This document shows positions 1,925 through 27,358 of a DNA stretch of 64,000 nt, piece by piece; position 1 is the first letter of the stretch, and each line of letters opens with the position of its first letter. Source of the stretch: Styela clava (lineage: Eukaryota). Made by a program: the position numbers and the translations under genes. The DNA lies in the NCBI RefSeq assembly GCF_964204865.1, contig NC_135252.1, positions 10,850,001-10,914,000 of the forward strand, given 5' to 3'. Under the pieces are notes generated by a model. That model was not told the DNA's origin. It did no database searches and saw only the letters and a program-made list of their open reading frames with translations.

Positions 1925-2199
1925 ACGATAGGATCTACATATCTATCCCAGGAGAGAGATATTGGACCAGATGGTGGAGGAAGCTGTAACCGACCAGCGG
2001 TTATGTGAACCACCCAACTGCGACGAGGAGTCCAGTAATCCTCTCGCACATAACCATGGGGTGACGAGCGTATTCCTAACGATCTCCACATTTAAACCTG
2101 CGAACCTACACAGACTGACATACGGTAGTGTAAATAATAAGAGGTGCGATGCCAAGCTTATTCCGCCTACAGGCTTAGCACGATGAGCCACACCACTGC
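1925..2199 (-). mobile_element. tRNA-derived SINE, degenerate copy
   Basis: Matches the family core seen at 45019-45364 (reverse complement GGTTATGTGCGAGAGGATT...TGGGTGGTTCAC...CCGCTGGTCGGTTAC) with internal deletion and rearrangement; boundaries approximate. Confidence 0.85.
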
Positions 2200-2468
2200 T
2201 AATTTGAAGTTAGACAATTCAGCAATTAAATATATCAAATAGTTAGAATGCATATTAACATTTTGCTTAGGTCTGCGGAGTTCACTCAAACAGTCAAATG
2301 TCTTTAGCAGTTTCACTTTTTAGTTTATCGCTTGCTCCACACAATGCTGCAATGTTACTGGTACCAGTCCCAATTTGACATACCGTGTTCGTGCCTACAT
2401 CTTGCCACACAATAATTCTACCGCGAAGGCATACCGGTACCGGTAGTCCGATGATACGGTAGTCTACC

Positions 2469-2482
2469 GTTACCATAGTAAT
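2469..2482. promoter_or_regulatory. RFX/X-box-like site
   Basis: GTTACCATAGTAAT resembles the X-box consensus GTTNCCATRGNAAC; target gene not identified. Confidence 0.3.
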
Positions 2483-2622
2483 TAAAAGTCCAAGTCTGGT
2501 AACTCTGGCATATGCAGATACATTCAGGCTACATGCTAAACTTAAGAACCTTAAAATGTTCGTACGGTACCGGTATACGGTACGGTAACACTGACACCAT
2601 GCCCTTCACTTTCTCAAACGTC

Positions 2623-2908
2623 GCCATCCCTAATCTGCCACCACAATTCGACCGCATTTTGCCATCCCTAATCTGCCACTACGCTTCGACCGCATTTTGC
2701 CATCCCTAATCTGCCACCACGCTTCGACCGCATCTTGCCATCCCTAATCTGCCACCATTCGACCGCATTTTGCCATCCCTAATCTGCCACGCTTCGACCG
2801 CATTTCGCCATCCCCAATATGACTTTTCGACCCTATTTTGCCATCCCTAATCTGCCACCTTTCGACCGTATTTTGCCATCCCTATTCTGCCATCCCCAAT
2901 ATGACTTT
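2623..2908 (+). repeat. Minisatellite, about 8 copies of a 33-38 bp unit
   Basis: Head-to-tail units GCCATCCCTAATCTGCCACCACGCTTCGACCGCATTTT starting near 2623, 2661, 2699, 2737, 2772, 2807, 2840, 2875; no unique spacers. Confidence 0.95.
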
Positions 2909-3366
2909 TATGCTACCACCACTATAGCAAAATTTTGTTCCGGTAATCAACCGCCCACAAACAATCCTTCTCCCTAACCAACTCTATTAACTTCGCAACT
3001 TCCATTTTTCGGGTTTGGGTAGGCCTAATTAATAATTGGTTAGGTTTTCGATAGTTAAATTTATTTCGCAGATGACACGAAATTTCCCGCCATTGTTACG
3101 TAATAAGTGAACCGTAGCACGCTGCGTTAACGCATTTGAAGTATGAACACCCTCAACGCAATTGCGTTGGATTCCGTTCCCAACGCAACACAAACCTATG
3201 CGTCAGTGTGAACCATTGAGGTGTGGTGTGAACGGGCCCTAAGACTACGAAACGCGCAGCGTTTGAAATGAACTTAGCGGAACGCGCAGCGTTCAAAATG
3301 AACTGGCGTTTTTAGTAGCGTCTCCTATTATCCGTTAGTAAACTGAAATGATGCGGGCCTCAAGCA

Positions 3367-3400
3367 ATGGCGGAGATCCAACTGGACTATCTATCTACCG
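3367..3400 (+). other. Candidate 5' leader exon of PISD carrying an upstream ATG
   Basis: ATGGCG...ACCG followed by a consensus donor GTAAGT at 3401, downstream of a GC-richer stretch with a 2x 24-bp direct repeat (3251-3274, 3281-3304). Linkage to PISD is inference. Confidence 0.4.
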
Positions 3401-5053
3401 GTAAGTCGGCTGATACAGAATATGGAATAGATGTTTTGTAACAATTACGTCGGATATAATATTGAACTTGTACAGAGTCTTTTTCGTTTGAAAACATAGA
3501 GTAGGAACAAAGAATTATATCGCCAAAGGTTACACTGCATCTTGGGTTAAAGTTGAAGGGTTCAAAGTCCGTTTCCACCTTTGATGTCGAAAGAGAGCAA
3601 TATTGTTTTTCATCTCTTTTTGTTTTGACTTAGGCTGTCTTTTTATGAGTGGTTTCATCCGATGCGATAGATTCTAGGATTTGAAACGGATGTGAATATT
3701 TGGCAATTTAAAAATTATTATTTCGCATGTTATCCTTGTATCAGATCGTACCGGTACGGTAGCCTATATTAAAAGTAGACTAGGTATGGTACAATGTTGC
3801 CAAACCTTGCGCACATGTCTGTATGAAGGACCATATTAATAAACTTATTTGATTTATTGCATTTTATGCTTATCATAGGGGTGTATGCCGCACTTTCATG
3901 TGTCTTAGGCTAGTATGGTCTTGTGTATACATCCCGTCTTCAATGTTGATAATCACTAACTGTTTTTTATTTTGCTTTTACGAGACGAATGAACATACAT
4001 ACATACATTTGCGTATTTTTTGTTCATTTCTTACCCAAGCCTCGTTTGCCTAGGTTTGTGTTTTGGCTTAATTCTTTGTGTGTGTGTTTGCAAAACAGAA
4101 AATTGTGCAGGACAAGCTAAACTCTATTTTAATCTATACATCAGTTGTGAGCAAAAACAAAATGTGTGAACTAATATTGTTTTGAAAATCAAAGAAATCA
4201 ATCAAAGTTCAATTTTATCAATTCATTTAAGCAGTATCATTACTATTTATCTGAATTAAATTGGACCACCATTCACATATAGCTATATATACAGATATAT
4301 ATTCCCTCCCAAGTCTATAATAATTATATAATGAATTACGATAGTTATCTGTCATATATTTTTAACTTATAATTTTGTGGATTTATTTAAACCTATGTGT
4401 ATATCATTTTGTGTGTAAACAAGTCAGACTTTGTATCAACTTATATCTAACTGAAATTCTGACAGGAATACCCCCACAAGAATGCATCTTAACCAAGCAT
4501 GAGAGCTGGAGTCTGAGCCAAGCTTTCAAAGTTAGATAGACAGATAGAGCTGGAGATACCAGAAATATCAGTGGCTCATCTCCTAATCTAATTATCTGTC
4601 AACATTTATAATTTTTTCAAAACTTCATACAAATAATAAAAACTACCCTTTTCAGCTTGTAAATTTTTATAGATTTTAATTATAATATTAATTAAAAAGT
4701 TTCCGAGTTCAATATATATATTTGAAAGTTTTAATTTTGAAAAGTTAAACCCTTGTATCATAGTCCAGTAGTCCTGAGTCCTACTTCCACCAAGCGGTAT
4801 TTGGGCAGATATAATAATGAGTATGAAGAAAATAAGCTGGAGCTGGAGCCCAGCTCTGACGTATAAAATGCCAGAGCTGGATCCACAGTTCGAATATACT
4901 TTGATGCTGGAGCCAAAGTCACTTTGATTTCGAACCAGTTCCCCAGCCCTGATCTAAACTGGAAAAATATAAAAAGAGTGATTGGGGGCGATTACCGGTA
5001 CTTGATTTGTAAAACTGTGTCTTTGATACTAGTTTACATGATTAACAAGCAAT

Positions 5054-5350
5054 ATAGGTGTTGAATTTTGGTTAGTTGACTCTGAGCAATTATGCACATC
5101 AATCACACTCTTAGTGTCAATGTGTTTTTTCATCAATTTTCACCTTATCAGATAATATTTAAAATCCAATCAATAGAATGACAGCGAACGATGCTCGAAA
5201 ATAGGTGTTGAGTTTTGGTTTGTTGATTCTGAGCAATTATGCACATCAATCACACTCTTAGTGTCAATGTGTTTTTTCATCAATTTTCACCTTTCTTATC
5301 AGATAATATTTAACATCCATAAATAGAATGACAGCGAACGATGCTCGAAA
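5054..5350 (+). repeat. Tandem duplication (147 + 150 bp) spanning the PISD acceptor and start codon
   Basis: Unit 1 5054-5200 and unit 2 5201-5350 both run ATAGGTGTTGA...ATGACAGCGAACGATGCTCGAAA, with a few substitutions and small indels. Confidence 0.95.
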
Positions 5351-6797
5351 AATACTATTTGCTGCTGTTTTCCGATATGTTGCCAAAAACACTCCTAGAC
5401 CAGTAAAACATGGTTGGACAGCTACTGTTTCAACTTTCAGAAATGCTTCAAACACTTTACCTCCACTTTCACCCATTGGTCGTCTTATATATAATGCATC
5501 ATGGAAACAGCCAAGTCTCCTACCAAAGTCTTGGAAAACTGCAGGGATTAGAAGGATTGCTTCATGCCCTAACCTTTTTAGAATGTTTGGTTTACCTTAT
5601 AAAGGACAAGGTTTAAAGAAGCATGCAGCAACTGTTAAAGAATCAAAAAAGCTTCAACAGTTCATAGATAACAGGAAAAAGGAGCAGGAATGGGGAAGAA
5701 AATATTTTCCTGTTTTCCCAGATGTAATAACCTTTTTCAAGGCAGCCATCATTGCTACATCTGGAATATTTGTTGGATGGATATTTTATCCTGATATTGT
5801 TGATAGAAAGTCTGCCCTAAATGATCCCACTTTGAGACTCAACAGTGCAATTATGCCTCAAGAGAAAAGAAATATTATGTTGAAAGTGTATCTTGGCCTC
5901 CCTTTACGAGCAATTTCACGTGCTTGGGGCAAAGCCAATCAGAGTATGAATCTACCAGTTACATTAAGACCTTATTTTCTAGGCTTGTTTACAAAAGCTT
6001 ATGGTGTAAATATGGAGGAGGCATTAGATTCAAACCTGAAAAACTATGCAAATTTATCCGAATTTTTTCGCAGAGCCATCAAATCTGAAGTACGTCCAAT
6101 TGACTACAAAGCTGACTTAGTAAGCCCCGTAGATGGTACAGTTCTTAATTTCGGAGAAGTTACAAATGGTCTTGTGGAACAAGTGAAGGGGGTTCACTAT
6201 TCTTTGCAAAAATTTCTTGGGCCATTACACGCTGATCCTGTTCATCAGGAATGGGGAGAGAAAGATCTCTATCAGCACAATTGGTGCACTGTTCCACTGG
6301 AGAACTACATGAAAGCTATAATGCATAATCCAACTGAAAACAGTCTTTATCATTGTGTAATCTATCTTGCACCAGGTGATTACCATAGGTTTCATTCTCC
6401 AGCTAATTGGACTGTGCAGCATAGAAGGCATTTTCCTGGTGATCTTTTGAGTGTAAGCCCAAAGATAGCATCAATGGTGCCAAGTCTGTTTGTCTTGAAT
6501 GAGCGAGTGGGTTTGTTGGGGAAATGGCAACATGGATTTTTTTCAATGACTGCAGTTGGTGCGACGAACGTTGGGTCTGTTGAGATATATGGAGATATTA
6601 CACTAAAGACGAATAGACCAAAACGAGTTTATGGTGGATATTACGATGAGGTGTACAACAATGTTGAAGCACAAAAGGGGTTGTCAATGGGAGAATTTAA
6701 TCTTGGTTCAACCATAGTACTTATTTTTGAAGCCCCAAAAGACTTTAAATACAGAGTTGAGGCTGGTCAGAAAATACAATTTGGCAAAGCACTGTGA
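5328..6797 (+). CDS. PISD: Mitochondrial phosphatidylserine decarboxylase proenzyme, intronless CDS
   Basis: 489 aa; SPVDG, YLAPGDYHRFHSP, VGATNVGS and the GEFNLGSTIVLIFEAP self-cleavage (LGST) motif; basic N-terminus and one hydrophobic segment. Confidence 0.97.
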   Translation: MTANDARKILFAAVFRYVAKNTPRPVKHGWTATVSTFRNASNTLPPLSPIGRLIYNASWKQPSLLPKSWKTAGIRRIASCPNLFRMFGLPYKGQGLKKHAATVKESKKLQQFIDNRKKEQEWGRKYFPVFPDVITFFKAAIIATSGIFVGWIFYPDIVDRKSALNDPTLRLNSAIMPQEKRNIMLKVYLGLPLRAISRAWGKANQSMNLPVTLRPYFLGLFTKAYGVNMEEALDSNLKNYANLSEFFRRAIKSEVRPIDYKADLVSPVDGTVLNFGEVTNGLVEQVKGVHYSLQKFLGPLHADPVHQEWGEKDLYQHNWCTVPLENYMKAIMHNPTENSLYHCVIYLAPGDYHRFHSPANWTVQHRRHFPGDLLSVSPKIASMVPSLFVLNERVGLLGKWQHGFFSMTAVGATNVGSVEIYGDITLKTNRPKRVYGGYYDEVYNNVEAQKGLSMGEFNLGSTIVLIFEAPKDFKYRVEAGQKIQFGKAL

Positions 6798-8400
6798 TTT
6801 TCTAGACATCCTTGTTGCCTCCGAAATGCTCAGACCTTGATTATTTTTGGTATTGCATTCAATTATCCAGCCTGAATTCTATCTACCTAATCTTGTTTTG
6901 AGCAATTATTTTTGTGAAATTCTCAGTTCAAAAGTTCCATATGTTCAAATCAGCTGGATAGCAGATAACTTAGTATGCTATTTATTCCATGAACTATGTG
7001 TTTCAAATCATGAGATGTGGATATTATAATTGACTGTTTTCTGTATGAAAAGATTGCACATCTTAAACACACAACGCTATCACTTTTTATTCATTTGGTA
7101 AAAATTATTTTTTTTAACTTCATCTGCCTAATTGAAGTATTTAGAATTATTCTAGCCAACAAATGTTAATGTTTTATTCCTAAAGGATTGTCCCTTTATT
7201 TAGTACTGGATTATATGAAACAAAAAAGGTAGGTGACCCAATTTTATTATGTTCTTCAAAGACTTCCATTAATGTCTTTGTGGTTCTCATTTTGAATCGT
7301 TCTGTAATTAGCATTATGCTAACATATTTAACGCTTATCATACGTTCATTATTTGAAAGATTGTACTTGTTTTTAATGCAGTCACAATTATCTTATTTTA
7401 ATAAACTTTCCCTATCAGGTAATTTGATTGATCTTTCTTCAGATCGATGATGGTATTTGGTCAGGCATATATTTTGTGCCAGGATGATAAAAAGCCAGCG
7501 TTCCATCGATCATTTTATTTAGGTCCTCTGACATAAATCAAAACAACACGGAAAGTAGACAGATGAATAGAATACAGAAATACCTAGTTTGAGCATACCT
7601 TGAATAAAGTTAAAAACGTACGAGAACGCACCCACCTGCCAACAAAAACAGACGCACAAGTGTGAACGCGAATCAAGTATGTTCACAATCGGAATGCAAT
7701 AAATGCTTTGCTTGGTTTTCTAAAACTGGTACCAGTATAGAAAAACACTAGTTGCAGGAAGCCAAGCGCCTTAACGGCACGGTCAGAAGTTTTCTTGCCT
7801 ATATTTGTTATAACTAAGTTTGTATGAATTTAACAAAATATCAATTCGTTATCAACAGCACTCTACTTTTTTCTGAAAATGATTAGGCTGACGGAACCCC
7901 TAATTTTTTAGAGACTGATCTGCACCGGAAATTTTGATATTTAATCAAAAGATCTTATGTACCGCAACTTATGCAATGCGGGATTTGGGAAAAACACCCC
8001 CGCCACGTTTTAAAATAAAGTAGTAATTATCCAGTTGGGGTTCGGAATGATTTGAATTTCCAGCTCAATCTCGATTCCTAGCTGAATAATCACTATTTTT
8101 TTTATTTTAAGCGGTGACCGTTTTTTTGTTTGTTGAGGCTTTGTCCAAAAAATCCGACCATTGCTGGCAGGTAGAAAGCATCTCATGCTCCGAACCCATT
8201 GCGTGACAGTGAGCATTGGAAATTTGGTTTATATCTAAATTTACTGAATTCTTTGATGCTCTGTGAAAAAATTTTTTCTGCACAATATGTAATGAGTAAC
8301 AATCAAATCAGAGCGGTTTCGTTTCAAGTTGCAAACCAGTAGGAGTGCTGAGAAACAGAGCTTTCATCAAGCTAAGTGCTAAATGGAAAAGGGGAATGAG

Positions 8401-8727
8401 CAGAAGATAGCATTTACGTATGCGTCCCGGGGAAAAAGAAAACCTGAAAGACGACTTAATCATATGGCTAACCACGACCTCTCGTCCGGTTGTCAGTCCA
8501 TGTCGGGTATAAGATTAGAGAGTTATTTGTTTCAGTTGCATGGACTTAATGGAGGAGGAAGGCATAACCGATCAGTGGCTACGTGAACCTCCCTGCGGCA
8601 GTGAAGAGTCCATCAATTTTCTTGCGCATAATTATCCCCCATTGAATCAGAACCTGCGAACCGACGCGGGTTATCAGTGGTGGATGGTGATCGCATTCCT
8701 AAGCCTTAGCAAGATGCGCCACACCGA
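8401..8727 (-). mobile_element. tRNA-derived SINE, old near-full-length copy
   Basis: Colinear but diverged match to 25860-26202 (CATATGGCTAACCACG..CTCTCGTCCGGTT..., GAACCTGCGAACC, GCCACACCG). Confidence 0.85.
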
Positions 8728-9769
8728 ATACGCCATTTCCTCAACGACTCGTGAGGAACATTTCCTGAAAGCTGACTTATTCGTGATTTAACCACGTAAT
8801 TAAACACGGTGGTTCAGTGATCCCCAAAGCGGCAGGTTTTATTAGCGTAATTAATTTTGTTTTTTGGTTTGGAATTGTTTAACCATTTGAATTTTAAAGA
8901 GAGGCACAAATTTTCTTTCAAAAGATTCAAGCTAAGTCACTGTATAAATACACCATACTTACATAAGTCTAATAACATTCCAAACGCCAACTATAACGCA
9001 AGTGTGAGTTAACCACTCGCAACGGCCGTCTGACGTCTTAAACAACAACGGGTTCGGGAGTACCATGACATTTCATGAACGGGATCGTGTGAACCCCCTG
9101 CTGGTCTTTGGGCTTATGCTGAAATGGCCAAACTCAAAAGTAAAAATACACTCATTCCAATCTTGGCTGTAATTGCAACAAAATTTTCCCTGTACTAGTA
9201 AATGGACAGTGTTCAAGTAGAAAAATGCAAAAAAATATAGGTCACAGAGTGTCAGAAATTGTGGCAAGATACAGTAATATCAGACACGCTTGCATAATAC
9301 AAAATTAATACATGATTGATTGATCAAGATATCACTGCAAAGTTTCACGAAAATGTGGCAAGAAAACTGAAGTGATATGAATGCTGTAATATAAACAAAA
9401 TATTAACACTGATGTGAAATCAAAATTCACAAACCTGTAGTAAAGTTGCTGAGTATAGTGACAAAGTATAGATGCTTGCATACATTAGGCAATATAATAA
9501 TAGCTGTGGTAATGACTGGAGAAGTACACATACTTACAATACAAACTGTCTGTCATATATATGTACATTTAACCATTAGCGTAAGACTCAAGTAACATAT
9601 TAGGCATGAAATAGTGACAACGGACTAGAAGCAAGCTGAAAATAGAAACATGGTTGGTTTTGATTCGATATTGTATCGAATTTCTTTCTCCCCATCAGCC
9701 AAAGCCTCCCTGTCAGTGATAAAAGAGACAAGATATTGTTATGTACATAAAACTCTTACTAAGGAGTTA

Positions 9770-12700
9770 TTATTTGTTTAGCCATGTGACCTTGTTACTT
9801 CGATCATTAAACTGTACTTGACCACTAGCAACTAGATCAAGTGCTTTAGGATACGTTTGGTGTTCTGCAGTTTTCACTCTTTCAGAAAGAGAAGTAACAT
9901 CATCATCTATTTCAACTGAAACAGCCGTTTGGGCTATAATTGCTCCTTCATCCATATTTTCAGTCACATAATGTACTGTACATCCTGTTATTCTCACACC
10001 AGATTTCAGAACTTGTTTATGAGCATCCATGCCCTTAAAAGATGGCAGTAAGCTGGGATGAATGTTGATTATTCTACCCCGCCAAGTCCTAGTAAACCAC
10101 CCAGATAACAATCTCATAAATCCTGCTAGGCATATAAAATGAACTCTTTTCTTCATCAAAACCTCATGCACTGCAAGATCATATGCTTCACGTGTGGGAA
10201 AGTTTTTATGGTCCAGCACAATATATGATATGTTAGCAGCAGATGCTTTCTTCAACCCTCCCGCATTGGCTTTATTAGATATGATAAGTGATATTGTGTA
10301 CGAGGATGAAGCTGTATTTTCATGGTTAATCAATGCCTGCATGTTAGTCCCTGTTCCAGATATAAATACTGCTACACTCGGTTTTTCAGAATTTCCAATT
10401 GATGGGAGATTTAGGGCATTATCAACTTCAGTTACATTAGGATCCCACGAGTTTTTTAAAGCTTCGGCAAAATCATTGACAATAACTTTATTTTCAACAT
10501 CTGATTTTTCTATATATCCGATGACATATGCATTTAGCTTAGATGAGGCCAAACGAACTCTACAATTTTCCATAACAGCATTTACCCCTTCTTTGGCAAT
10601 AACCATGCACATACCAAGGCCACAATTGAAAGTCTTGAGCATTTCTTGGAAGTCAATATCACCTACTTTCGACAACCATCCAAACACGGGTTGAATTTCC
10701 CACTGCTTGGCACAAATTATAGCACACATTCCATTAGGAATAACGCGAGCTAGATTACCATTTATACCACCGCCCGTGATATGAGCCAAAGCTTTTACAA
10801 AGTTTCCAGATCTCAAAACTGGTAAGAGACTTGTGTAAATTGCTGTTGGTGCAAGAAGACAGTCCAGCAGATTGCAATTGTTATCAAATGGTGCTGATTC
10901 CGATAAATTGCAGCCAGATATCTTGACAACTTCCCTAACTAGGCTGAAGCCATTGCTATGTAAACCATTTGAAGATATACCAACGATAACATCTCCTTCC
11001 GATATTTCATTTAAACGAGGCAATGGTGTGTGTAACTTTTTATCATAAGCACCTACTGCAAAGCCAGCTAAATCATATTCTCCATTTGCATACATGCCTG
11101 GCATTTCAGCTGTTTCTCCACCAATAAGACCACAGCCTGCAAGTTTACAGGCTTCAGAAATGCCATGAACAACCTCAGTAGCAATTTTAGATTTGAGTTT
11201 TCCACATGAAAGATAGTCCAAAAAGAACAAAGGCTCAGCGTTATGAGTCAAAACATCGTTCACACACATTGCAACAAGATCTTGACCTATTGTCGAATGA
11301 CGACCACTTCCCTGAGCAAGTAGAAGTTTAGTTCCAACACCATCAGTTCCAGACACTAAAACAGGATTAGAGTAACCAGCTGCAGCAAGGTCAAAAAGGG
11401 CTCCAAATCCACCAAGCACTGCAGTGCATCCCTTACGGGCAGTTGACGAAGCTATTGATGAAATTCCATGAACAAATGCGTCACCATTAGATACACTAAC
11501 ACCACATGATGCATATGTAAGTTTCGGCTGGTTTTTTATATACTCCAAACCTTTCCATCCTATATCCTTTCGATAAAATGACCCTTCAAATTTGATCACT
11601 TCAGCACCAGCAAGAGCAATTCTTGTTGCATCTTCTAAGTTAGATGCTGTTGAACAAACTGACAAGACACGTCCTCCAGAAGTGATTTTGTTGCCATCAG
11701 AATCTAACTTTGTTCCTGCTTCGAACACCTTCAAATTTGGATTTTGATTGCCTGCCCCTATACCTGTTATCACTTTGCCTTTTTCATATGCTCCAGGGTA
11801 ACCTGAGCTAGCCAGGACGATACAAACAGATTTTGTGTTTTTCCAGCAAATATGAGAAGAGTTGAGGGATCCTTTGCAACACTGTGTGAAAATCTCATAT
11901 AAATCAGAATCTAATAATGACATGAGAACTTGACACTCTGGGTCTCCAAATCTACAATTAAATTCTAACACCTTTGGTCCATCCTTTGTGAGCATGATAC
12001 CAGCATATAAAACTCCAACATATTTTTTACCTTCATTCTTCATACCATTAACTGCTACTTGCAAAACATGATTCGTTATATATTCGACCACTTTATGATC
12101 TATTTGAGGACATGGGCCATAGGCACCCATCCCTCCAGTATTTGGACCTTTATCGCCATCATACACCTGTTTGTGATCTTGTATTGGTGGCATCACAGCA
12201 ATAGTGTCACCATCTGTAAAGCAAAGCAATGAGAATTCTTCACCATAAAGCCGTTCCTCCACAACCAAAGTATCACCAGATGAACCAAACAAGTTTTGTT
12301 CAAAAATATCCTTTACAGCTTTACAAGCTTCAGTAGCAGTTTCACATACCACGACACCTTTGCCTGCTGCAAGTCCACTTGCCTTCACAACCAACGCATC
12401 ATAATTCGCTGTATTTATATGAGCAATGGCTGAATCAGCATCTTTAAAACTTTTAAATTGTGCGGTTGGAATGCCATTTCTCACCATGAATTCTTTGGCA
12501 TATTCTTTACTGGCTTCCAGAGCAGCAGCAGAAGAGGTTGGCCCAAAACATCTCACACCGTTTTTTGCTAGTACATCACATATTCCATCTGCCAGTGGTA
12601 CTTCGGGACCAACAACAACAAGGCTAATTTCATTCAGTTTGCACCACAAACTGAGACTTTCATAATTGTCTGATGGAACATCAATGACATTCATTACTTT

Positions 12701-12865
12701 TTGGTATTTCTTAGCATGTTCCGACATTTCGTTTTCCACAATGTTGTTATCAGTTCCTCCATTTCCTGGGCTCACCAAAACGGACTTAACAAGAGGTGAC
12801 TGTGACAGCTTCCATGCTAGTGCATGTTCTCTTCCCCCAGAACCAATTATCAAAATTCTTGCCAT
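9770..12865 (-). CDS. GART: Trifunctional purine biosynthetic protein GARS-AIRS-GART, intronless CDS
   Basis: 1031 aa; GSGGREHALAW and LEFNCRFGDPE (GARS), GTDGVGTK, GGETAEMPG and HITGGG (AIRS), ISGTGTNMQALI and NIHPSLLPSFKG (GART), in the animal domain order. Confidence 0.99.
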   Translation of the reverse strand: MARILIIGSGGREHALAWKLSQSPLVKSVLVSPGNGGTDNNIVENEMSEHAKKYQKVMNVIDVPSDNYESLSLWCKLNEISLVVVGPEVPLADGICDVLAKNGVRCFGPTSSAAALEASKEYAKEFMVRNGIPTAQFKSFKDADSAIAHINTANYDALVVKASGLAAGKGVVVCETATEACKAVKDIFEQNLFGSSGDTLVVEERLYGEEFSLLCFTDGDTIAVMPPIQDHKQVYDGDKGPNTGGMGAYGPCPQIDHKVVEYITNHVLQVAVNGMKNEGKKYVGVLYAGIMLTKDGPKVLEFNCRFGDPECQVLMSLLDSDLYEIFTQCCKGSLNSSHICWKNTKSVCIVLASSGYPGAYEKGKVITGIGAGNQNPNLKVFEAGTKLDSDGNKITSGGRVLSVCSTASNLEDATRIALAGAEVIKFEGSFYRKDIGWKGLEYIKNQPKLTYASCGVSVSNGDAFVHGISSIASSTARKGCTAVLGGFGALFDLAAAGYSNPVLVSGTDGVGTKLLLAQGSGRHSTIGQDLVAMCVNDVLTHNAEPLFFLDYLSCGKLKSKIATEVVHGISEACKLAGCGLIGGETAEMPGMYANGEYDLAGFAVGAYDKKLHTPLPRLNEISEGDVIVGISSNGLHSNGFSLVREVVKISGCNLSESAPFDNNCNLLDCLLAPTAIYTSLLPVLRSGNFVKALAHITGGGINGNLARVIPNGMCAIICAKQWEIQPVFGWLSKVGDIDFQEMLKTFNCGLGMCMVIAKEGVNAVMENCRVRLASSKLNAYVIGYIEKSDVENKVIVNDFAEALKNSWDPNVTEVDNALNLPSIGNSEKPSVAVFISGTGTNMQALINHENTASSSYTISLIISNKANAGGLKKASAANISYIVLDHKNFPTREAYDLAVHEVLMKKRVHFICLAGFMRLLSGWFTRTWRGRIINIHPSLLPSFKGMDAHKQVLKSGVRITGCTVHYVTENMDEGAIIAQTAVSVEIDDDVTSLSERVKTAEHQTYPKALDLVASGQVQFNDRSNKVTWLNK

Positions 12866-13102
12866 TCTTACGGTTTCTTATACCGTTTTCCTATCTTATT
12901 TTTTGCAGACCTGAATTTCAGAATTGCGAGATTAAAAATCATTAATTAAGTATCCTATATAGCCTAGGAGACTCTTATTTTACAGTCTTATTCACATACT
13001 CAGTAGATTAATTTAAATCAATTCAAGTTAAGCCATTAAGCACAGTCAGACAGTGGGTAAATTCGGGATTGTAAATGACGGGCAACACTGGGCGATGAGA
13101 TA

Positions 13103-13428
13103 CAGTATCTACCAAAGTTACCCCAGCCCACACTCACCCTGCGGTCAACGGGTTAACCCACTATTTTACTCACTTTATAAACCTTATTTCATGAAAACTA
13201 TTTGCCCTGATAATATATAGCCCATACTGCCATAGCTGATATATTCCACGCAAATGCAATACCAAGCTCAGCCTACAGGCCTAGTTACACCTAACATGGC
13301 CTAACAAAAACGATTGTGGGCTGGCATCCCATGACTGTGGGGCTGGCGTTCTGATGTTATAAAGTGAGTAAAATAGTTAGTTAACCCGTTGACTGCCGGT
13401 GTAGGCTGGGGTAACTTTGGTCGGTATC
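13103..13428. mobile_element. MITE with ~65-bp imperfect TIRs upstream of GART
   Basis: Left arm ACCAAAGTTACCCCCAGCC...GTCAACGGGTTAAC...CTATTTTACTCACTTTATAA is mirrored by TTATAAAGTGAGTAAAATAG...GTTAACCCGTTGAC...GGCTGGGGTAACTTTGGT; exact ends uncertain. Confidence 0.85.
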
Positions 13429-13577
13429 TTTACATCTTGGTTACTTTTAAATAATTACATTAATTTTTTCAATAAACTATGATTGTATGAAAGATAACGA
13501 TGATTCTAGTATTTTAAAGGAGCTAGGTACGGTATCGTGCAAGTTTTCTGAATCTTCAATCAGTACTGCAGTATATC

Positions 13578-13790
13578 ATAATCAATCAATCAATCAATTT
13601 TATTCGATCACTCTGATACAAACAAAACACAAAACAACAACAAAGGGACAAACAAAATACAGAGGACCTGGAGGACGGGCATAACTTAATAAAAAAGTTA
13701 AATACGTACAAGTACGTGCCCGTCCCCCAAAAACAGGCAAAACACAATAAAACAAAAACATGATGTGACATCGGGCAATATCTTATAAAT
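13578..13790 (-). mobile_element. LINE-like (CR1/L2-type) 3' end with stem-loop and (TTGA)n tail
   Basis: Minus strand ends AATAAAA(TTGA)4; inverted pair GGACGGGCA (~13672) / TGCCCGTCC (~13717) forms a 3' stem-loop. Family assignment is inference. Confidence 0.6.
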
Positions 13791-14039
13791 TCAAATTAAA
13801 ATGTGAGACGTGTATGTGCTTTTCCTATACAGATATATGGATTAAAGAACACTCGCTGACGAAAAATGGTGATGTTGTGGGTCTACTTCAATTATATTGC
13901 AAAAATAACACAGTGACAAATTTTTTTTTACTAAAAAACAAGCTTGGTAAATGGATTGAATGTTCCATAGCAGTCTATGCACAAATCATGAATTGGGGTA
14001 TTGGGTTCTTTTGTCGTTTTCGGTTAGTTCACTTTAAAA

Positions 14040-14252
14040 TCATTGTATCCGTTCCAATGCTTCCAACATTAATATCGAATTTCCACGAACGACCACCATT
14101 CAGCCATTCCAACAGGTGCAGTGATCCCATCTTTTCTATGCTCTGTTCCATCATACACGACTAGATTCATAAAAGGATCGTCCACCATTTAACTTTAAAT
14201 CCAATCTTTTATCCATAAACTTCTCTTATTTTAGTGGATGGGCTTTGCTCAT
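14040..14252 (-). pseudogene. SNRPG: Sm protein G processed pseudogene
   Basis: Translates MSKAHPLK*EKFMDKRLDLKLNGGR / DPFMNLVVYDGTEHRKDGITAPVGM / VVVRGNSILMLEALERIQ*; premature TAA at 14226-14228, deletion of the V.G.LRGF segment, an 8-nt insertion, no introns. Confidence 0.93.
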
Positions 14253-15134
14253 GTTGATATTGCGCGATACAGATTACAGATACCGAAACATACAACGCGT
14301 AGCATTCACTAGTCTTTTCAAGCTGACACGTCTGCACCCGACGAAGGTCGGAACGGAACTCGAATGGAATAAATATAAACACATGTTACTTTTAAATAAT
14401 TACACTAATTTTTTCATTAATCATTAAACTATGAAGGATAACGATGATTCTAGCATTTTAAATGGAGCTAAGTATCCTGCAAGTTTTCTGAATCTTCCAT
14501 CAGTACCGTACTGCAGTAGGCTATATCTTGGATATAAACGCACCTACACTCATGACTCAAGACACTGTCAGCGCGTAGGCGGCACACTAATACTCCGAAC
14601 CGTGGTCATTTACTACGGTACCGTACGGTAGCTCCTACCGGTACGTAAATTACAACAGAAATATCTAAATATTTCCACAATCTTACCAGATATAGTCTGG
14701 CGGTACTGATGTCTGCAGACTTTTAAGTATATTATATATACTTACCCTATATTTATTTGCAATACATCGTACCGTAATGTCTGAATGTAACAACATCCTG
14801 GCATCTAAATAAAATATCAACAACAAGGCTACACACGTGGTTTCAGTGATAGTGGTTGTGGGGGTCTCCCTAACACCGGGCGCTTGCGAATTCAGGCACT
14901 TTGATATTTTATTTTTACCGTACGTCATTGGGGTTTCCAATTTATTGGACACGTGAGTGGACCTATGGATCGTTTTTGATATTATGTTGTTGTTCTTGTT
15001 GATATTCTTCTCTTTCGTCGAGATGAAATCGCTTTTCTCTTCGAATACTGGACCAATTGCTCTGATAATTACCTGTAAGAATAAAATGATCAAGGTATTT
15101 GAGAATCAAAACAGTTTTGAGGGTAACGAAGCAT

Positions 15135-15628
15135 GGATCTTTCCCCGAGCATCTACTTTCTTGTTTACTTTATGACATTGGCCAATCAGCAAAATGCAAA
15201 AAGTGATGTAACAATGCTCTGTTTTCGCATCCGCTCAGACACTTTTCTCACTCAGAGCATAGATGCATTGTCTCTGCCCAGACAGATTACCTCGTTTTTG
15301 GGTTTTTGAACTCTATTCGTTAGTTTTCAGTTGTGTTTCGGAAATTTAAATATAAATCAGATAATTCAATGACCACTCTGTCTTCTTATGAGTTTTAATT
15401 TAATTGCAATAATAAAAAATTAGTGTAGAATTAGCTGTGATAGACTGGTCTAAAATTCTTCACCGGTACTTTTAGAAAACAGACTGTTGTATGCGATGAA
15501 TCATAATGATGGTTTGAAACACATACCCTATTTTACAGGCACCAACTCGCGAAACCACTCTTAAAATATGCCCCAGAAATTTCGCAATGGAAGATTTTTT
15601 TCAGAAGTCAAAGGTCGGGCAATGGTTC
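15135..15628 (+). mobile_element. MITE, older copy of the 43995-44475 family
   Basis: Shares GACATTGGCCAATCAGCAA...TCGCATCCGCTCAGACACTTTTCTCACTCAG...AAAGGTCGGG; AT on both flanks. Further fragments at about 30275-30440 (-) and 43653-43860 (+). Confidence 0.85.
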
Positions 15629-15632
15629 ATTA

Positions 15633-16612
15633 ATAAATAAAGCTGAGGAATTTGTTTGTTCACTGTACGGAGTAAATATGAACAACCTAAATGATACCAG
15701 GGCACGTCACTCCAAAACTTGCAAATATATGGATTAAACTCTTCCACCCAACAATGATTCACTCTAAAGAAGCATATTCTGAAGGATGAGGATTTCGGAA
15801 GCAATTCAGAGGAAAGTGAATTATATTGAAGTCAATTTAATGAATATTTTTAATCAATTTTTCTCAAACATCTGGTAGTTTCGAAAGTCCTATTTCCCAT
15901 AAATAATATTGACTTTGTATCAAATACACAGCCACATAAACTGAAAAAAGACTAATTTCTGTTTACGACTTTTTTGTGTAAATTTTTCAGTGAGAAATAG
16001 CCGATTTATTTGTGTTTTTGTGCTCACGATGTTAATTTGTGACTTCATTGCATAAAAATAAATGCGTTTGATAGCTTCTATAAAATGAATGCAACTTCTT
16101 ACGCTGTTTTTGTAGTAAACTGATTTTGGTCAGTCGAAACGTTTCAGAAATACATTTGTGTTAGTGCGCTGCAGGACTTTTGAATTGCGTAATTCTTATG
16201 CTGTGTTGTTGTAAAGCTATGGAAATTGATTTTCTGAGAATCCCTCAAATGCAATTTTGCATTTTCATTTAAACCGATTTACTTGTGTTTTTGTGCGCGC
16301 AAAGTTAATTTGTGACTTCATCGCATAAAATTGATGCGTTTGATGGAGTCTATAAAATGAATGCAATTCTTCATGCTGTGTCGTTGTAAACCTATGGTTA
16401 TTAATTTTGGGGAAATCTCCTTAAATCGAGTTTTTCATCAGGGTTTTAGAAGCATGTTTTACAGAAAATGTGTAACTTTCGTTAGTGGGAACAAGCTGTA
16501 GTGCGTTCAATATATTCATTCTCATACAAAACTAAAGAACTCATATAGTTTCCAGATGGGCGCTACGAAACTCACTTTTTAGGCGTTTTTCAGGGCCTCG
16601 TCTCACGGCCTA
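15633..16612 (+). mobile_element. 3' part of an Academ(X)-like DNA transposon
   Basis: Decayed frame AEEFVCSLYG..LNDTR..*TLPPNNDSL/KKHIL resembles the FVCxLYG...LPP...H segment of XPG-domain Academ proteins; subterminal ~120-bp repeats (about 16000-16120, 16273-16400); ends CTCACGGCCTA (Academ ends are TAG..CTA). Confidence 0.55.
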
Positions 16613-16781
16613 AAATGTATGAAAATATTTTATATAATCGAATCAATTAAAAAAAAAACGCGTGCTATGAGGGTGTTCTAGTTAGATTTCAAAAATAAAT
16701 ATTATTCTACTGAACTAGTAATAGCTAGGCTTAAGGAAATGATAATTTATATAGCAGTACAAACAAGAAGATCACCTGCGC

Positions 16782-17470
16782 GATTCTTTTGGTCCTCGCT
16801 GCAGCGTTCGATATGGTTCATCACTCAATGGTATAAGAGGCAAATCACTTAACCTCATGGCGTCACACTTAAGCGGGCGTCAGAAATGTGTTCTGAATGG
16901 GGTATATATTCATGAAATGGGCTTTACTAAATGCGGAGTTCTACAGGGTTACACAATTGGTCCTCTGCTATTTTCATGTTATTAAATTATCTACCAGTTG
17001 CATCTTCCTTATTCAACGCTATTTGCTGATGATACTTCCCCGTTAAAATCTACGTCATGTTTGTCCTAACTTGAGATCGTAGTGAATACTGAAATACAAA
17101 ATGTTGATATTTGGCTAAAGGAAAATATATAAATTATCTTTAAATTACTCTAAAACAAAGGCTCTTCTGTAATAAGGGAAAAGATATTACCCACTTCAAA
17201 CTTTTTTAGGCAGTAAAAAAATTGGGCGAACCAATAGTATAAAATATTTGTGGGTCACCATCAATGATAATCTAAGCTGAAACTGCATATTAACTAGCCA
17301 GGAAGCTATCGCAAACCGTTGGTATTTTTTATGAACTAACTAAACACATCTTGAATTCTGAAACGCTTAAAGTAATTCATTATAGTTTATTTCACTCACG
17401 ATTGCAATATGGAATTATTAGTTGGGAATCAGCAGCTAAGTCTTCATTGTAGCTAATTCAAGATGATAAA
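16782..17470 (+). mobile_element. Decayed LINE reverse transcriptase (CR1/L2 group)
   Basis: Ordered motifs FLVLAAAFDMVHH, CGVLQGYTIGPLLF, LFADDT, KYL.VTINDNLS, YSLFHSRLQYGIISW with stops and frameshifts. Confidence 0.9.
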
Positions 17471-17555
17471 AGAGATGTGCATAAATAAATATTGTCAGAC
17501 TAATAAAAAATTGCCTAAGTCAAATTTTCACATTTTAAGTGAAAAACTTTTTTTC

Positions 17556-17965
17556 TTCGAATTTAGGTAACCACGTCCATCGCTCCAAACTATGATATGC
17601 TTCAGCTCGGGATTATTACAAATGATTCGCTTAAAATGCTCAAACTGCAAGTAAGTAAATACTTCACTAGAAAGTTTGCCTTCAGTTTCATTCCAGACGT
17701 AACAGTAACCTGCTTTTGATTTTGTATCATATAGTGTGAAATTGTGTACCTATAGCTTAGTTCTGTATTATGAGGTACTAGCTCTCGTTCTAGAACATAA
17801 AAGCACGGCCTGTAGATCCATCGTCCAAACGGATTTTTTTGCACTTGCAGAATCTTTGTCGGTTATCGTTTTTTTCATAGCATCATCCTTCAGTTTGATA
17901 TGCAAGCTATACTCAACTGTACTCATGTTACCATGTTTGTAACCTACACACTTATCAGATTATCG
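17556..17965 (-). mobile_element. Sola1-like DDD transposase fragment
   Basis: Minus frame reads WTMDLQAVLLC...*YRTKL*VHNFTLY...GYCYVWNETEG...IIVWSDG, the DLQ / YxxKLxVxNF / CYxWxExEG / SD pattern of Sola1; two in-frame stops. Confidence 0.75.
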
Positions 17966-18468
17966 AGACTTACATCAATATCTAGTAGTTCGTGAAACGG
18001 TAAATAGCCACTTTTACTATATAAATATGCATCGGAATTCTCCTTGCAGCCATCGAGCTGAAGCTCTATAAAACCCTCCCAACTTCATTCACCTCATCTG
18101 TGAAAATTAAATACGGAAACATGTGAAGATCGCTCACTACTATCGCCGTATAAATTCGCATTTTTTGGCGTTCAAAAACTTGTCACGTGTGCCACTATCA
18201 TTTGCAGAAGCATTTCCAAGTAGAGCATAGTTTCTCAGCTTCCTGGACTTCATACCGTTAGTACTCGATCACTACAATTACTTGCCGGTAGCGTCCAGAT
18301 GTTGAAATATATATGTCAGTACACCCTATTTAACCAGAAAGCACTGCTCGTCAAAGAGTGTCGTAACGATGCCAGAACGTACCAAACCTAGATGAGGACA
18401 AGCGTGTTTAAATGTGCCTATCTCAATAATAGTTCCGGTTAGCGCTGGTCAGTTACGGCTTCCTCCAC

Positions 18469-21088
18469 TGTTGGCGTAGTAATGGACGATGTCTTGGTTC
18501 ACGGACGAAACCAAGAGGAACATGACAAAAGACTTGACGCTGTTTTGAAAAAGATAGCAAAAGCAGGTCTTGCGTTAAACGACAAATGTCAGTTTTCCCT
18601 CCGAAAATTAAAGTTTCTTGGTTTTATGATAGATGCAGAAGGTGTGGAGGACCCTCAAAAGGTCATGGCTCTTTCCAAAATGCCAGCTCCCACAAATGTT
18701 TCCGAACTGAGACCCTGAAACAGAAAAATTCTAAAGGACAATGGAAACCTGTGGCGTTTGCTTCGCGCGCTATGAACACCACAGAGCAGAAATATGCGCA
18801 AGTAGAAAAAGAGGCATTAGCAGTTACGTGGGCGTGTGAGCATTTTCAAGATTTTCTCGTAGAAATGCATTTCATGATAAACACAGACCACAAACCACTA
18901 GTTGCTTTATTCGGCACGGAAAGCCTAGATGAGTTGCCTCCGCGAATCCAAAGATTTAGGATGAGATTGATGCGGTTTTCCTTCGATATTTCTCACATCC
19001 CAGGAAAGCACTTGATAATAGCAGAAACTTTGTCTCGTGCACCACTGGACGACATGCGAGAAGAAGAAATTCAGCTGAATGAAGACAGCGGTATTTATGT
19101 TCGTTCTGTTATTGATGGGTTCCCGGCATCAGATAAGCGCTTGCAGCAAATTCGTGTACATTTAAATGAGGACATTGTCTGTAAAGAAATTATGAATTTT
19201 TGTATGCACGGATGGCCGGATGAATCCAGGCTTAATGACGTATTGTTGCCGTACTACGAAGTACGCGGTGATCTGCCACTGATCTTACTGTAATTGACGG
19301 ATTGTTGCTACGCGGAACCAGATTATTAATTCCAGCATCGTTGCGACTTGATATTTTGGAGAAAATACATGAAGGATATATGGGGATCGTAAAATGCCGA
19401 CGTCGAGCAAGATCTTCAGTGTGGTGGCCTTACATGAACAAGCAACTGGAAGAAGTTTGTAAGAGCCGTCCTTCTTTTTGTGAATTTTCACAAACCAAAA
19501 CTCAACCATTAATTCCGAGTGAATATCCTGATAAACCATGGAAAAAGATTGCAACGGATTTATTCGAGTTGAAAGGTTCAAAATATTTGTTAGCTGTTGA
19601 TTATTTCTCCAGTTGGATCGAGATTGCTTTGTTACATGATACGACGTCGCTTACAGTAATCAATCATCTAAAGTCAATTTTCGCAAAGACCACAATACGC
19701 TTCGGGAGAATTTTCCAAATTTGCAGTAGAATATGGATTTTGTCATATAACGTCAAGTCCTCGCTATGCTCAATGTAACGGAGAGGCGGAGCCTACAGGA
19801 GTGGTGACTCCTCTACGGCCCATGGGCCGGGGCCACGGCCCATCTAATTGGGCCACATGGGCCGTGGCCCATCAAGCTATGGGCCGTGGCCCATCAAGCT
19901 ATGGGCCGCGGCCCCATCAGGAAAATTTCAATTATCTTACCAAAATTTTCAATTTTTACAAAACTGTCAATATTCGAACAAAAAAATATACTCCTGTAGT
20001 ATGTGTACCAGGTTAGGGTTAGGACAAAAAAAATTCAAATTTTTTACATTATAGTTCTATTATGAATTCGGGGACTGTCTGTGTTAGCCAAGTGAATAGT
20101 CCCTTTACACAACTTGATGGGCCGCGGCCCATAGCCTGATGGGCCGAGGCCCAATTCGATGGGCCGTGGCCCCGGCCCATGGGCCGCAGAGGAGTCACCA
20201 CTTCCACTCGGCGGAGCGTGCAGTCCAAACTATTAAAAATCTGCTTAAAAGAACAAAAGATCCATACATGGCATTGCTGAATTATAGAAGTACAGCTTTG
20301 AAAAATGGTTATTCTCCAAGTGAACTTCTCATGGGAAGAATGTTGAGCACGAAGTTACCAGTTTATTCAAGTGAATTGATTCCAAAATGGCCTAACATGG
20401 ATGAATTGCAAAATAAAGAGTTGGGCGATAAAATGAAACAAAAGATGCATTTTGATAAAAGGCACAGAGCTCAAAATATGGAAAAATTGCAGATTGGTGA
20501 TCATGCATGGATCAAAGATGGTCTTCAAAAAGAGCAAGGTGTTATAACTGGGTATGCTGATACACCACGTTCATATATGATTTTAACACCGAGTGGTACG
20601 TTGAGACGTAATCGTCGACATCTCAAGAAAGTTCCAGAAAGACCAACTTCGGACGAAGAAACACAATCTCCCATCAAAACGGATGTACAGGTTGAACCGA
20701 ACGAGCCTGTTCAAGAAAATACGGAGAAAGTGAACATTACAAGATCTGGACGAATTTCCAGACCGCCAGAAAAACTAAATTTGTAAATAATTATGAAGGC
20801 GGTCATATTGTGATAACATCGTTATTGTGCAAGTTTCTTTAAATTGTTTTATGTTCACTTTTTGATAATGTTTAGAAACATATCTTTCCTGTAAGGGGGG
20901 GGGGGGGTGTATGTTAGTATTGTGACGTAATAATAGCGTCTGGGTCTACCCGACGCAGACGCGTAATAATGGGATTTGGAGTGGGCTGTTGTTGATGTGA
21001 TGGTACTGTTTTGCTGCTAAGATTAAAGACTATTCCATTCATACGAACAACGTGTCTATTTGCCTCCAATATAATAAGGGACACGACA
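18469..21088 (+). mobile_element. Ty3/Gypsy LTR retrotransposon remnant (partial RT, RNase H, integrase, PPT, 3' LTR)
   Basis: MDDVLVHG (RT), PVAFASR..YAQVEKEALAV..TDHKPL (RNase H), IHEG..VWWP and DLF..VDYFS..NGEAERAVQTIK (integrase), multiple frameshifts; G-run PPT 20893-20907; LTR about 20908-21088; TG...CA ends with 5-bp TSD TCCAC (18464-18468, 21089-21093). Confidence 0.95.
19793..20209. mobile_element. 417-bp MITE with subterminal inverted repeats and 8-bp TSD, inserted in the integrase
   Basis: TSD GGCGGAGC at 19785-19792 and 20210-20217; ~54-bp inverted repeats AGTGGTGACTCCTCT.CGGCCCATGGGCCGGGGCCACGGCCCATC set ~7 bp inside non-matching termini; internal GGGCCGTGGCCCATCAAGCTAT repeats. 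Confidence 0.95.
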
Positions 21089-21884
21089 TCCACCATCAAG
21101 TCCATACATCCGAAAACAAACAATATAACTAATCCCATACCGGACTCGGAATGCTAACTGGACGAGAGGCCGTGGTTCGCCATATGGATAAGCCGTCTTA
21201 TCGGCTTTCCGCTCCCCCGGGATAAATATGTAAATCCTATCCTAATTCACTGAACTAAAGAAGAAAGGGTCATATGGTAAAATATCAGAAGCGAAAGATC
21301 TTGAATCAAGAATATGGACTTCAAACGTTTCCACTCAAATAGACAATAAAATTGTCTATCCCAAATAGTCGTAATGTAACATGATATGCGCAATGCGAAA
21401 CGCCAAACATTCATTAAATTCCGTATTATTATTGTTTTGTTCAATCACGGACCCGTGTACATGTGATGAGTGCTTTTTCCGATGCCGTATTATTATTATC
21501 ATTTGTTCAATTACGGACCTGTGTATGTGTAAGTAGTGATTTCCCCGATGATTGTTTCATCTTCATGTGTGGCGTGCACTTGCACAGAATTTACCTACAG
21601 TTTTGATTTGATTTGTGTAGTCTTGAATATCTTTCTTATATGTGGTCCAATCAACGTTGGCCTAGGTTTGTGTTTTTTTGTTAAATTCTTTGCGCGAGTG
21701 GCGGTGATCGAGCTGCGAGCGCGTGATTATCTCTCGTGTATAAAACTTTTTCGAAGGTCTTTCCATATCTCCAGAATTTTCTTATTCTTAAGTGGTTTGT
21801 ATTTTTTAAATCATTTAGGCACAGATGAATCCAAAGACACTAGGTCGTATCCTCGTTTTCTATCCACTCCAGAAAACTATGTAA

Positions 21885-22160
21885 TAGCCCTGTGATTATC
21901 TCGAATCCCAAGCGGGGTTTATTATGTGCGAGAGAATTGCTGGACTCCTCTCCTTGGTAGGGTGGTTCATTTAACCACTTGTCCGTTGCGGCTTTCTTCA
22001 CCATCAAGTCCATGCATCTGAAAACGAATAACTGACAACTAATCCATAGCCGACATGGACTGGTAACCGGACACAAATGGCTTGGTTCACCATATGATTA
22101 AGCCGTTTTATTGTTTTCCTCTCCCCGGGATAAATAATAAATATGTAAACACTATCCTAA
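21885..22160 (+). mobile_element. tRNA-derived SINE, degenerate 5'-truncated copy
   Basis: TTATGTGCGAGAGAATTGCTGGACTCCTC...CACCATCAAGTCCATGC...CCCGGGATAAAT. Confidence 0.85.
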
Positions 22161-22516
22161 GAATAAACTTTCTGTTCTATAGAGAGGTGAAGGTACAACC
22201 AGTGATTAGTAATATGAGATGAATTGAAATAAGCAACTCTCCGTTTGTTTTTAATGTATTTGAAATGGGCAATCAAATTCGAAGCATAAAGAAGGGATAT
22301 TTTAATAGGTCTTATCAGATAAGCTAATCTCATTACGAAGAGTTATATGTAATTCTGTGCCCAAAAACCCGAAATGAGTGGCCGTACACATGGTTCAGAC
22401 ATTTATAGCAAGTACCTATATATACAAATTATGTACAATTCCAATATTGAAGAAAAACGAGGCTGAAAAAAATTACCACATGGATTATACAGTTGAAACA
22501 TAACAAGATTAATTGG

Positions 22517-22756
22517 GCATGATGAATTTAGTCCAATACACTGAACAAAAGAAACATGAGAAGGCAATATCTAAAAATATAGATGACTGCAGGGAACAGA
22601 TTACAGGCCTCAATTTCAAAAAAATTCTCAACCTTATTTGAGCATGATGAATTTGGTTCAATATACAGAACAAAACAAACATTATGAGGAGGCAATATCA
22701 AAAAATATTGATGACCGCAGGGAACAGATTACAGGCCTCAATTTAAAAAAAAAATT
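22517..22756. repeat. Two-copy ~126-bp tandem duplication
   Basis: GCATGATGAATTT...GCAGGGAACAGATTACAGGCCTCAATTT at about 22517-22626 and 22643-22756. Confidence 0.9.
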
Positions 22757-25549: not shown

Positions 25550-25859
25550 ATTACCACCTAATATATCTCAAGCATTACAAATTCAAACTGAAACGCTTAA
25601 AATCAATTGCTAAAAACTACCTGAAAAATGGAAACAACAGTGTTATTAGCATACAGCAGCATTACTGCATTCTGGCTTATAGAACTTTCTACAATAAAAT
25701 TTATTACTTGTTTCGAGAAAATTCCGATTATTGAATTAATAATTGCTTGCAATTGATTGAACCAGAAAACATATCGAAGTCCTCAAATCTCCGTATACAG
25801 GTATATAGACTACTGGTATACTTATTTATGAAGACAAACATGCTGCAACACAGCAACAT

Positions 25860-26785: not shown

Positions 26786-27358
26786 AAAATGGCAGCATGG
26801 GTAGATTCACTTTGGCAGTTGCAACATGAAGTATAAATGAAAAAACATGAGATACTTTTTAATCCTATGATCTGATATGCCCATGTCATTATTAAGGGCA
26901 GGGAATAATATAAGGAAAAAAAAATAAGCAATGACTGTATGAAGTGATATATACCGGTACGGTAGGCTACAACACACAATTTTTTCCCAATTTTCTGTGT
27001 GTTCATTGTTTGTGCTTTGTATATGATTTTTTTTTACGGGAAAATCAAAATATACTTACCGTACCGGTACCCGGTACCGTATTCCATATACATGGCATTC
27101 CTGGTTCTTTAAACCCTGACAAGTATACCGGTACATTTCACTGTCTTCACCTCACAAATATCCCCTAAACTTGAACAAAGTTCAAAATAAGTATAAAAAT
27201 CATATAAATTCCTATAAAATAAGCCCTCAGACTGAGTTAGAGGGTTCGTCAACAACGATGAATAACCGACCGCTGTCAGAGCTGTGTACTGGCCGTTAGT
27301 CGTTGGTACTGGCTTACGGGGCTGCCACTTTGTCCGACAAATAACATCTAGAATAGAT

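Follow-up and report, generated by a model that had tools for sequence, protein, structure and literature searches.

Short insertions at TA sites in the Styela clava genome, probably excision scars of resident pogo transposons

Three 5-bp indels distinguish the two copies of a local duplication upstream of GART in Styela clava, and with a probability of about 0.8 we assign them, from sequence comparison, to a class of derived TA insertions (TACCGTA/TACGGTA, TACCGGTA, TAGGCTA/TAGCCTA, and TAGGCCTA) that would be excision scars of resident TA-targeting pogo elements. The class is real, and its members are likely pogo excision scars, of a known kind that occurs here on an unusual scale. The indels lie within a window of 64,000 nucleotides (NC_135252.1, positions 10,850,001 to 10,914,000 of assembly GCF_964204865.1), which is the whole stretch of DNA analyzed and whose own numbering is used in Table 1.

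Table 1. Coordinates of the duplication, indels, scar words, and neighboring features in the window.
Feature	Position	Strand	Remark
Second scar cluster, 12 CC-type words	2121..4993		upstream of phosphatidylserine decarboxylase ORF (ATG 5328, +)
Phosphatidylserine decarboxylase, single uninterrupted ORF	5328-6797	+	
GART, single uninterrupted ORF, about 1030 aa	9770..12865	-	GARS, AIRS, and formyltransferase domains
Inverted-repeat copy of dispersed repeat family	13111..13421		adjoins copy 1
Duplication copy 1	13440..13577	+	two-copy local duplication, ~140 bp
Indel 1, TACGGTA, likely CC-type excision scar	13528..13534		copy 2 has plain TA at 14473-14474
Duplication copy 2	14385..14527	+	two-copy local duplication, ~140 bp
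Indel 2, TACCGTA, likely CC-type scar	14504..14510		copy 1 has empty site AG-TA-CT at 13564-13565
Indel 3, TAGGCTA, likely GG-type scar	14517..14523		copy 1 has plain TA at 13572-13573
Nested scar-word string (TACGGTA, TACCGTA, TACGGTA sharing TAs; TACCGGTA, TACGTA)	14614..14647		just past copy 2; unpolarized
Two more TACCGTA words (14770, 14916)	14770..14922		same cluster; unpolarized
603-codon ORF, no Pfam match	23756-25549	-	
Third scar cluster, 6 CC-type words	26952..27133		upstream of 603-codon ORF (ATG 25549, -)

The duplicated segment occurs twice in the whole 377-Mb genome, and a pairwise alignment of its copies shows 85% identity over 128 columns, with three 5-bp gaps in about 50 aligned bases. 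These gaps are the TACGGTA, TACCGTA, and TAGGCTA insertions that an earlier note on this DNA had described between the repeats, and all three are present where it placed them. When the alignment was repeated under four gap settings, indel 2 was clean in all four (CAGTA-CCGTA-CTGCAG in copy 2, CAGTA-CTGCAG in copy 1), and its empty site fits both the target of a CC-ended Fot-type family described below and the target of fish Passer, given in excerpts of PMC9976928 as AAGTACTT. Indel 1 forms one 5-bp gap under the stiffest setting and is split 3+2 by softer ones. A G/A mismatch lies one base before its TA, four of its five inserted bases repeat the preceding GGTA, and its flank, GG-TA, fits the preference of scars for G before TA; taken alone, this indel could have arisen by slippage. 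Indel 3 is whole under one of the four settings and stands at the edge of the alignment, with TATC as its right anchor before homology ends. Because the genome holds no third copy of the 140-bp segment, the three focal indels cannot be polarized, and because the cores of indels 1 and 2 are one base from a neighboring triplet, the slippage filter used in this analysis would flag both.

Across the genome, the scar words are more frequent than expected. In 160 random 10-kb stretches (0.4% of the genome), with expectations from an order-2 Markov model, TACCGTA/TACGGTA was counted 231 times against 114 expected, TAGGCTA/TAGCCTA 180 against 97, TACAGTA/TACTGTA 339 against 252, and TAGGCCTA 58 against 9.4, or 25 without one 33-copy array. 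The 6-bp form TACCGGTA, a partner overlooked by the earlier note, is 11-fold enriched (138 vs. 12 expected) and, for CC, as common as the 5-bp form; around CCGG only TA flanks are enriched (154 vs. 15), and other flanking dinucleotides are not. The products of 3-nt GGG overhangs and of long CCG overlaps, the TAGGGTA class (121 vs. 104; 92 with one array limited) and the TACCGGGTA class (2 vs. 4.6), are not in excess. Within the window, TACCGTA, TAGCCTA, and TACAGTA rank highest in enrichment among TA-NNN-TA words, with class counts of 20 vs. 5.5, 11 vs. 4.8, and 21 vs. 9.8 expected, and TACCGGTA occurs 14 times; the excess over other TA-NNN-TA words, for which the earlier note had proposed a test, is found in the window and in the random stretches alike. 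Extrapolation, with a bootstrap over loci, gives an excess of 57,000 (44,000-71,000) CC-type, 25,000 (17,000-34,000) GG-type, and 25,000 (15,000-35,000) CA-type words, from which natural scars are estimated at 80,000-107,000, about 100,000, genome-wide. Element ends were rejected as the cause of the TACCGTA excess, which amounts to 117 words, since TACCGTA opens 2 of the 22 sampled ends. CpG decay of TACCGTA was likewise rejected as the origin of TACAGTA, since TACCATA, its twin product, shows no enrichment (252 vs. 268).

Gains and losses were told apart by aligning each of 273 sequences with all the others (2.04 Mb in total, with 8 overlapping loci left out), scoring each TA-Nx-TA site by the number of homologous repeat copies with or without the insert, and setting aside gains that resemble a neighboring triplet; the polarized events are few and come from repeats only. 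At 1447 informative 5-bp sites there were 35 derived gains, 20 of them set aside as possible slippage, and 12 of the remaining 15 are CCG/CGG, GGC/GCC, or CAG/CTG. The three gains in other classes are 5 bp away from a scar event and seem to be those events over again, read in a shifted register. By class, derived non-slippage gains were found at 6 of 25 TAGGCTA sites against 3 of 1337 other sites (p = 2e-9), at 4 of 36 TACCGTA sites (6 before the slippage filter; p = 1e-5), and at 2 of 49 TACAGTA sites (p = 0.01). Among 6-bp sites, TACCGGTA gained at 5 of 24 against 6 of 1588 (p = 2e-7) and TAGGCCTA at one of four, with no gain in 10 sites of TACATGTA. TAGCTA had three derived gains in 40 sites, and TACCTA/TAGGTA, in which one whole 2-nt end would be kept, had none in 81, an absence for which the 2-nt reading set out below does not account. 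Losses numbered 0 of 10 in the three 5-bp scar classes and 1 of 32 in the 6-bp CC or GG classes, at a TACCGGTA site, and single repeat copies carry scar gains against up to 29 copies without them. The class is thus in excess and derived by gain, so that neither a lack of excess nor deletion between two TAs describes it; the view that these are insertions holds for the class, with the focal three remaining unpolarized.

The dispersed repeat that adjoins copy 1 belongs to a family whose other copies show polarized gains from TA to TACCGTA (L025, L016). As an observation in its own right, the left end of this copy recurs inverted at its right, unlike the 29 other aligned copies. Among the matches listed for reads and contigs over 2950-19750, second-haplotype contigs show a net +5 bp at 3356-3826 and 16617-17117, in a comparison where X1, X3, and X4 are one sample, which may be the window's own, and where the indels are dominated by repeat copies; the two +5 bp contigs are thus no more than a lead.

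Footprints left by end-joining after excision are textbook mechanism for Tc1/mariner elements, and Tc1 and Tc3 leave 2-nt overhangs. We propose a similar course here, in which an element would insert at TA and duplicate it, TA being seen on both sides of intact copies, and the transposase would later cut the element out and leave terminal bases on each flank, a step established for Tc1/mariner. End-joining would then keep one or two bases per end, C(C)+(G)G from CC…GG elements and G(G)+(C)C from GG…CC elements. Up to two bases per end would yield TACGTA, TACCGTA, TACGGTA, and TACCGGTA from the former and TAGCTA, TAGGCTA, TAGCCTA, and TAGGCCTA from the latter, and derived gains are seen for both series. 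We lean toward 2-nt overhangs in this excision. Among the sequences compared, no site was observed in both states, occupied by an element and scarred. The scar bases equal the ends of TA-targeting elements in the same genome fully for CC…GG and over two bases for GG…CC. Every scar would add a second TA open to new insertion, and insertion likely prefers GTAC and open upstream DNA; repeated hits on such TAs, together with this preference, would produce nested strings and clusters like that upstream of GART.

Candidate donors are present and young. The pogo domain DDE_1 (PF03184) has 126 matches in the genome, compared with none for the Tc1-type domain PF01498 and two for PF13358, and TIRs were sought around 30 of the 126. 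Two pogo families have TA[CCGTATTT…]TA ends. In one CCGTATTT-ended family, whose copies are 98.8-99.1% alike, an intact ORF of 440 aa encodes BrkDBD, HTH_Tnp_Tc5, and DDE_1 domains with, by hand count, DD35D spacing; a homologue search gave the same domain set. The Passer-type candidate donor (L233, L234, and L248) has a short TIR starting CCGTA and a TA duplication. Passer-type ends, MITEs included, number 830 by exact match and about 5,000 with mismatches allowed, the latter an extrapolation from 22 ends in the sample, two of them doubtful; CC-ended elements amount to about 2,500, against 57,000 CC scars. Copies of one MITE (L047) lie inside larger duplications, so that their flanks are uninformative. 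A third CC family, of 2938 bp, has CCGTAAA ends, 17 of 17 of those listed following TA. We presume this family to be Fot-type from the resemblance of its motifs. Three candidate Fot-like donors (L277 for the CC family, L243 for the GG family, and L250) encode DDE_1 with DD35D and have a TA target, and neither HTH_psq nor HTH_Tnp_Tc5 was detected at E 0.001 in four of four Fot-like ORFs, those of L277 and L243 possibly lacking the first exon. Separately, the CCGTAAA-ended pogo element forms a tandem array at G000:C6:21823664-21841302, with a unit of 2937 bp repeated about six times. As judged from their sequences, the members of the 440-aa family match Passer as defined in excerpts of PMC7386202 and the donor vector end in excerpts of PMC9976928.

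Among GG-ended elements, a GGGT-ended pogo family of about 4.1 kb encodes a 673-aa ORF, and its copies are 98-99% alike; 59 of its 65 ends follow TA, with no longer duplication in the three pairs seen. A second GG-ended pogo type begins GGGG. These donor ends match the scar bases for two bases, the third being G and not C, and the GG+C scar probably mixes bases from both GG…CC ends, which would imply 2-nt overhangs. A GGG-ended pogo leaving three bases would give an excess of TAGGGTA, and the absence of one favors the two-base reading. Of the TA-flanked TIR families predicted to carry CCG and GGC termini, the former were found, whereas the TIR survey and the sample contained no abundant GGC-ended, TA-flanked donor. 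TAGGC-ended elements were rejected as such a donor because all four copies have 8-bp duplications outside TAGGC…GCCTA, which means that the TA belongs to the element itself; these hAT-like elements (L074, L122, L133, and L179; 1.6-2.2 kb) have TAGGCTTGCACG ends and perfect 8-bp duplications, with four copies in 1.6 Mb. Other elements seen include a TA-flanked TIR element starting CAGT at 55106-55977 of the window, a candidate for the weaker TACAGTA class, and, in the sample, CAGGGTG-ended repeats. Two pogo-type DD35D transposases from young multi-copy families, at L243:1174-3192 (Pfam E 8e-6) and L251:841-2535 (1e-3), have a PHD-like finger at the C terminus.

The bases flanking the scars offer a further comparison with these donors. 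G precedes TA in 17% of the background, and in 84 of 244 TACCGGTA flanks, 116 of 431 CC 5-bp flanks, and 124 of 356 GG 5-bp flanks; CA words show no such preference. By hand count, the CCGTAAA family has G before TA in 11 of 17 listed ends (9 of 15 without a pair sharing flanks); for the GGGT family the figure is 19 of 59. Passer-type ends have it in 8 of the first 100 of 584 listed, also by hand count, which is below background and a poor fit to the scar flanks; Passer is therefore probably not the sole or main CC donor. The best-fitting CC family has 17 listed ends, and the most abundant one, the Passer type, fits poorly.

Excision with 3-nt overhangs, as in Sleeping Beauty, is the alternative closest to our reading. 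CCG-ended elements would give TACCGTA/TACGGTA, and TACCGGTA by CG pairing, so that CCG ends cut in this way predict the same 5- and 6-bp words and fit the CC series equally well; Sleeping Beauty footprints are of 3 bp (excerpts of PMC6943129), and no derived TACCTA gains were seen. A separate GGC family, rare or extinct, would have to supply TAGGCTA/TAGCCTA, and one TA-flanked GGCAAC-ended element does exist (L199), but a genome search with it matched its own two ends only. The GG scars also share their preference for G before TA with the GGG-ended family, active GGG families leave no TAGGGTA excess, and GC pairing should favor TAGGCCTA as CG pairing does TACCGGTA, yet the ratio of 6-bp to 5-bp excess, 1.1 for CC, falls to about 0.2 for GG. 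We regard 3-nt overhangs as unlikely.

Alternatives that dispense with excision fare worse. Microhomology deletion or aborted gap repair between a TA inside the TIR and the far target TA could leave TACCGTA as an element remnant, and Passer and Fot-type CC TIRs do start CCGTA. Such remnants are improbable, since the process cannot yield TACCGGTA or the GG series, whose candidate donors lack an early TA, and among the 22 CC ends sampled, 20 start otherwise than with CCGTA. Replication slippage, a tandem 5-mer duplication followed by a point change at each focal site, draws on the GGTA repeated at indel 1, on the CAGTA-CCGTA-CTGCA context of indel 2, and on the 20 of 35 derived 5-bp gains that the filter attributed to it. 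An identical additional substitution would have to recur each time, gains that are not slippage fall in three words only, and the GGC of indel 3 is unlike either neighbor, all of which makes slippage a very improbable source of the three. Barely credible is an ancestral state with the long forms, which selection would have maintained as protein-binding sites near promoters, the short forms being deletions between TAs: the focal sites are unpolarized and the clusters lie upstream of genes, but losses are nearly absent from the CC and GG classes, and single copies gain against many without.

The distribution of the scars also speaks to the idea, raised in the earlier note, that the DNA upstream of GART is a special hot spot. 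At the genome-average density, three scars in 280 bp have a p of about 3e-5, which shows that scars are clustered. With one array locus dropped, 118 of 363 CC words have another no more than 100 bp away, compared with 145 of 2331 controls. Nesting, in which a TA is common to two scar words, is seen for 59 of 369 CC words and for 49 of 2369 controls. Scars thus occur genome-wide and cluster in many places, in this window upstream of three genes, and GART is no exception among them. The GART cluster lies 0.7-2.1 kb upstream of the first ATG and the duplication 0.6-1.7 kb upstream of the ORF. Of the 34 CC words in the window, 26 stand no more than 3.3 kb upstream of one of three long ORFs, in DNA that holds 16% of the TAs, although this DNA was picked with the data already in view and the words do not count as independent. 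In the random sample, with CpG edges as a proxy for promoters, the link is 32 of 112 against 100 of 534 for CC (p = 0.03) and 16 of 72 for GG (p = 0.5), so that promoter association outside the window is weak. Survival of CpG is not supported as a cause of clustering, CC sites in CpG-poor DNA being 20 of 112 against 92 of 534 controls. The GART, phosphatidylserine decarboxylase, and 603-codon ORFs all lie in CpG-poor DNA, which suggests methylated gene bodies. Elsewhere the window holds retroelement fragments (RT RNase H and integrase zinc domain, 18538-19778) and sulfotransferase and leucine-rich-repeat ORFs (32856-33467 and 59303-60130).

Footprints of Tc1/mariner elements likewise consist of a TA duplicated around two to four terminal bases of the element; they are known from assays and single loci, in contrast to the estimated number of natural scars reported here, in a CC and a GG series. 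Excerpts of PMC6943129 and PMC7913693 give overhangs of 2-4 nt for the superfamily, and these together with excerpts of PMC2874221 give footprints of TACAGTA/TACTGTA for Sleeping Beauty and of 0-3 bp for ZB. Passer, a pogo element with DD35D (excerpts of PMC7386202 and PMC9976928), leaves footprints of 0-4 bp (excerpts of PMC9976928), and the local ends, which start CCGTA with a TA duplication, agree with its entries there; the clustering of scars upstream of genes fits its published bias to promoters. Fot and Fot-like elements have DD35D, DDE_1, and, in many, a TA target (excerpts of PMC7386202), and the local CC- and GG-ended families have DD35D by hand count. Outside subscription journals and bioRxiv supplements, we found no report in the literature of such scars as a genome-wide class. 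What is new here are the polarized counts for two series in one genome, the matching of candidate donors by ends and flank preference, and the upstream clustering.

The activity of transposons is commonly judged by the copies that survive, and the inferred scars outnumber CC-ended elements by about 20 to 1, so that a count of copies would fall far short of past activity. Scars of this kind would form a specific, countable class of mutation, which brings words with CpG and fresh TA targets into the DNA upstream of genes and from which target preference, turnover, and cut position become testable from sequence alone; such enriched words should not be taken for transcription-factor motifs. A larger claim, which we put forward as a possibility and hold with some doubt, is that pogo insertion and excision are the main source of non-slippage 5-6 bp germ-line insertions, with some 100,000 fixed scars that amplify themselves at GTAC and concentrate upstream of genes, at least 20 for each surviving CC-ended element and perhaps more than 1,000 for each copy of the family with the best-fitting target. 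If this is true, the scars would record, like fossils, where elements once inserted and where germ-line chromatin was open; they would also be the trace of a continuing promoter mutator and would reveal the cleavage geometry (2-nt overhangs) of pogo families.
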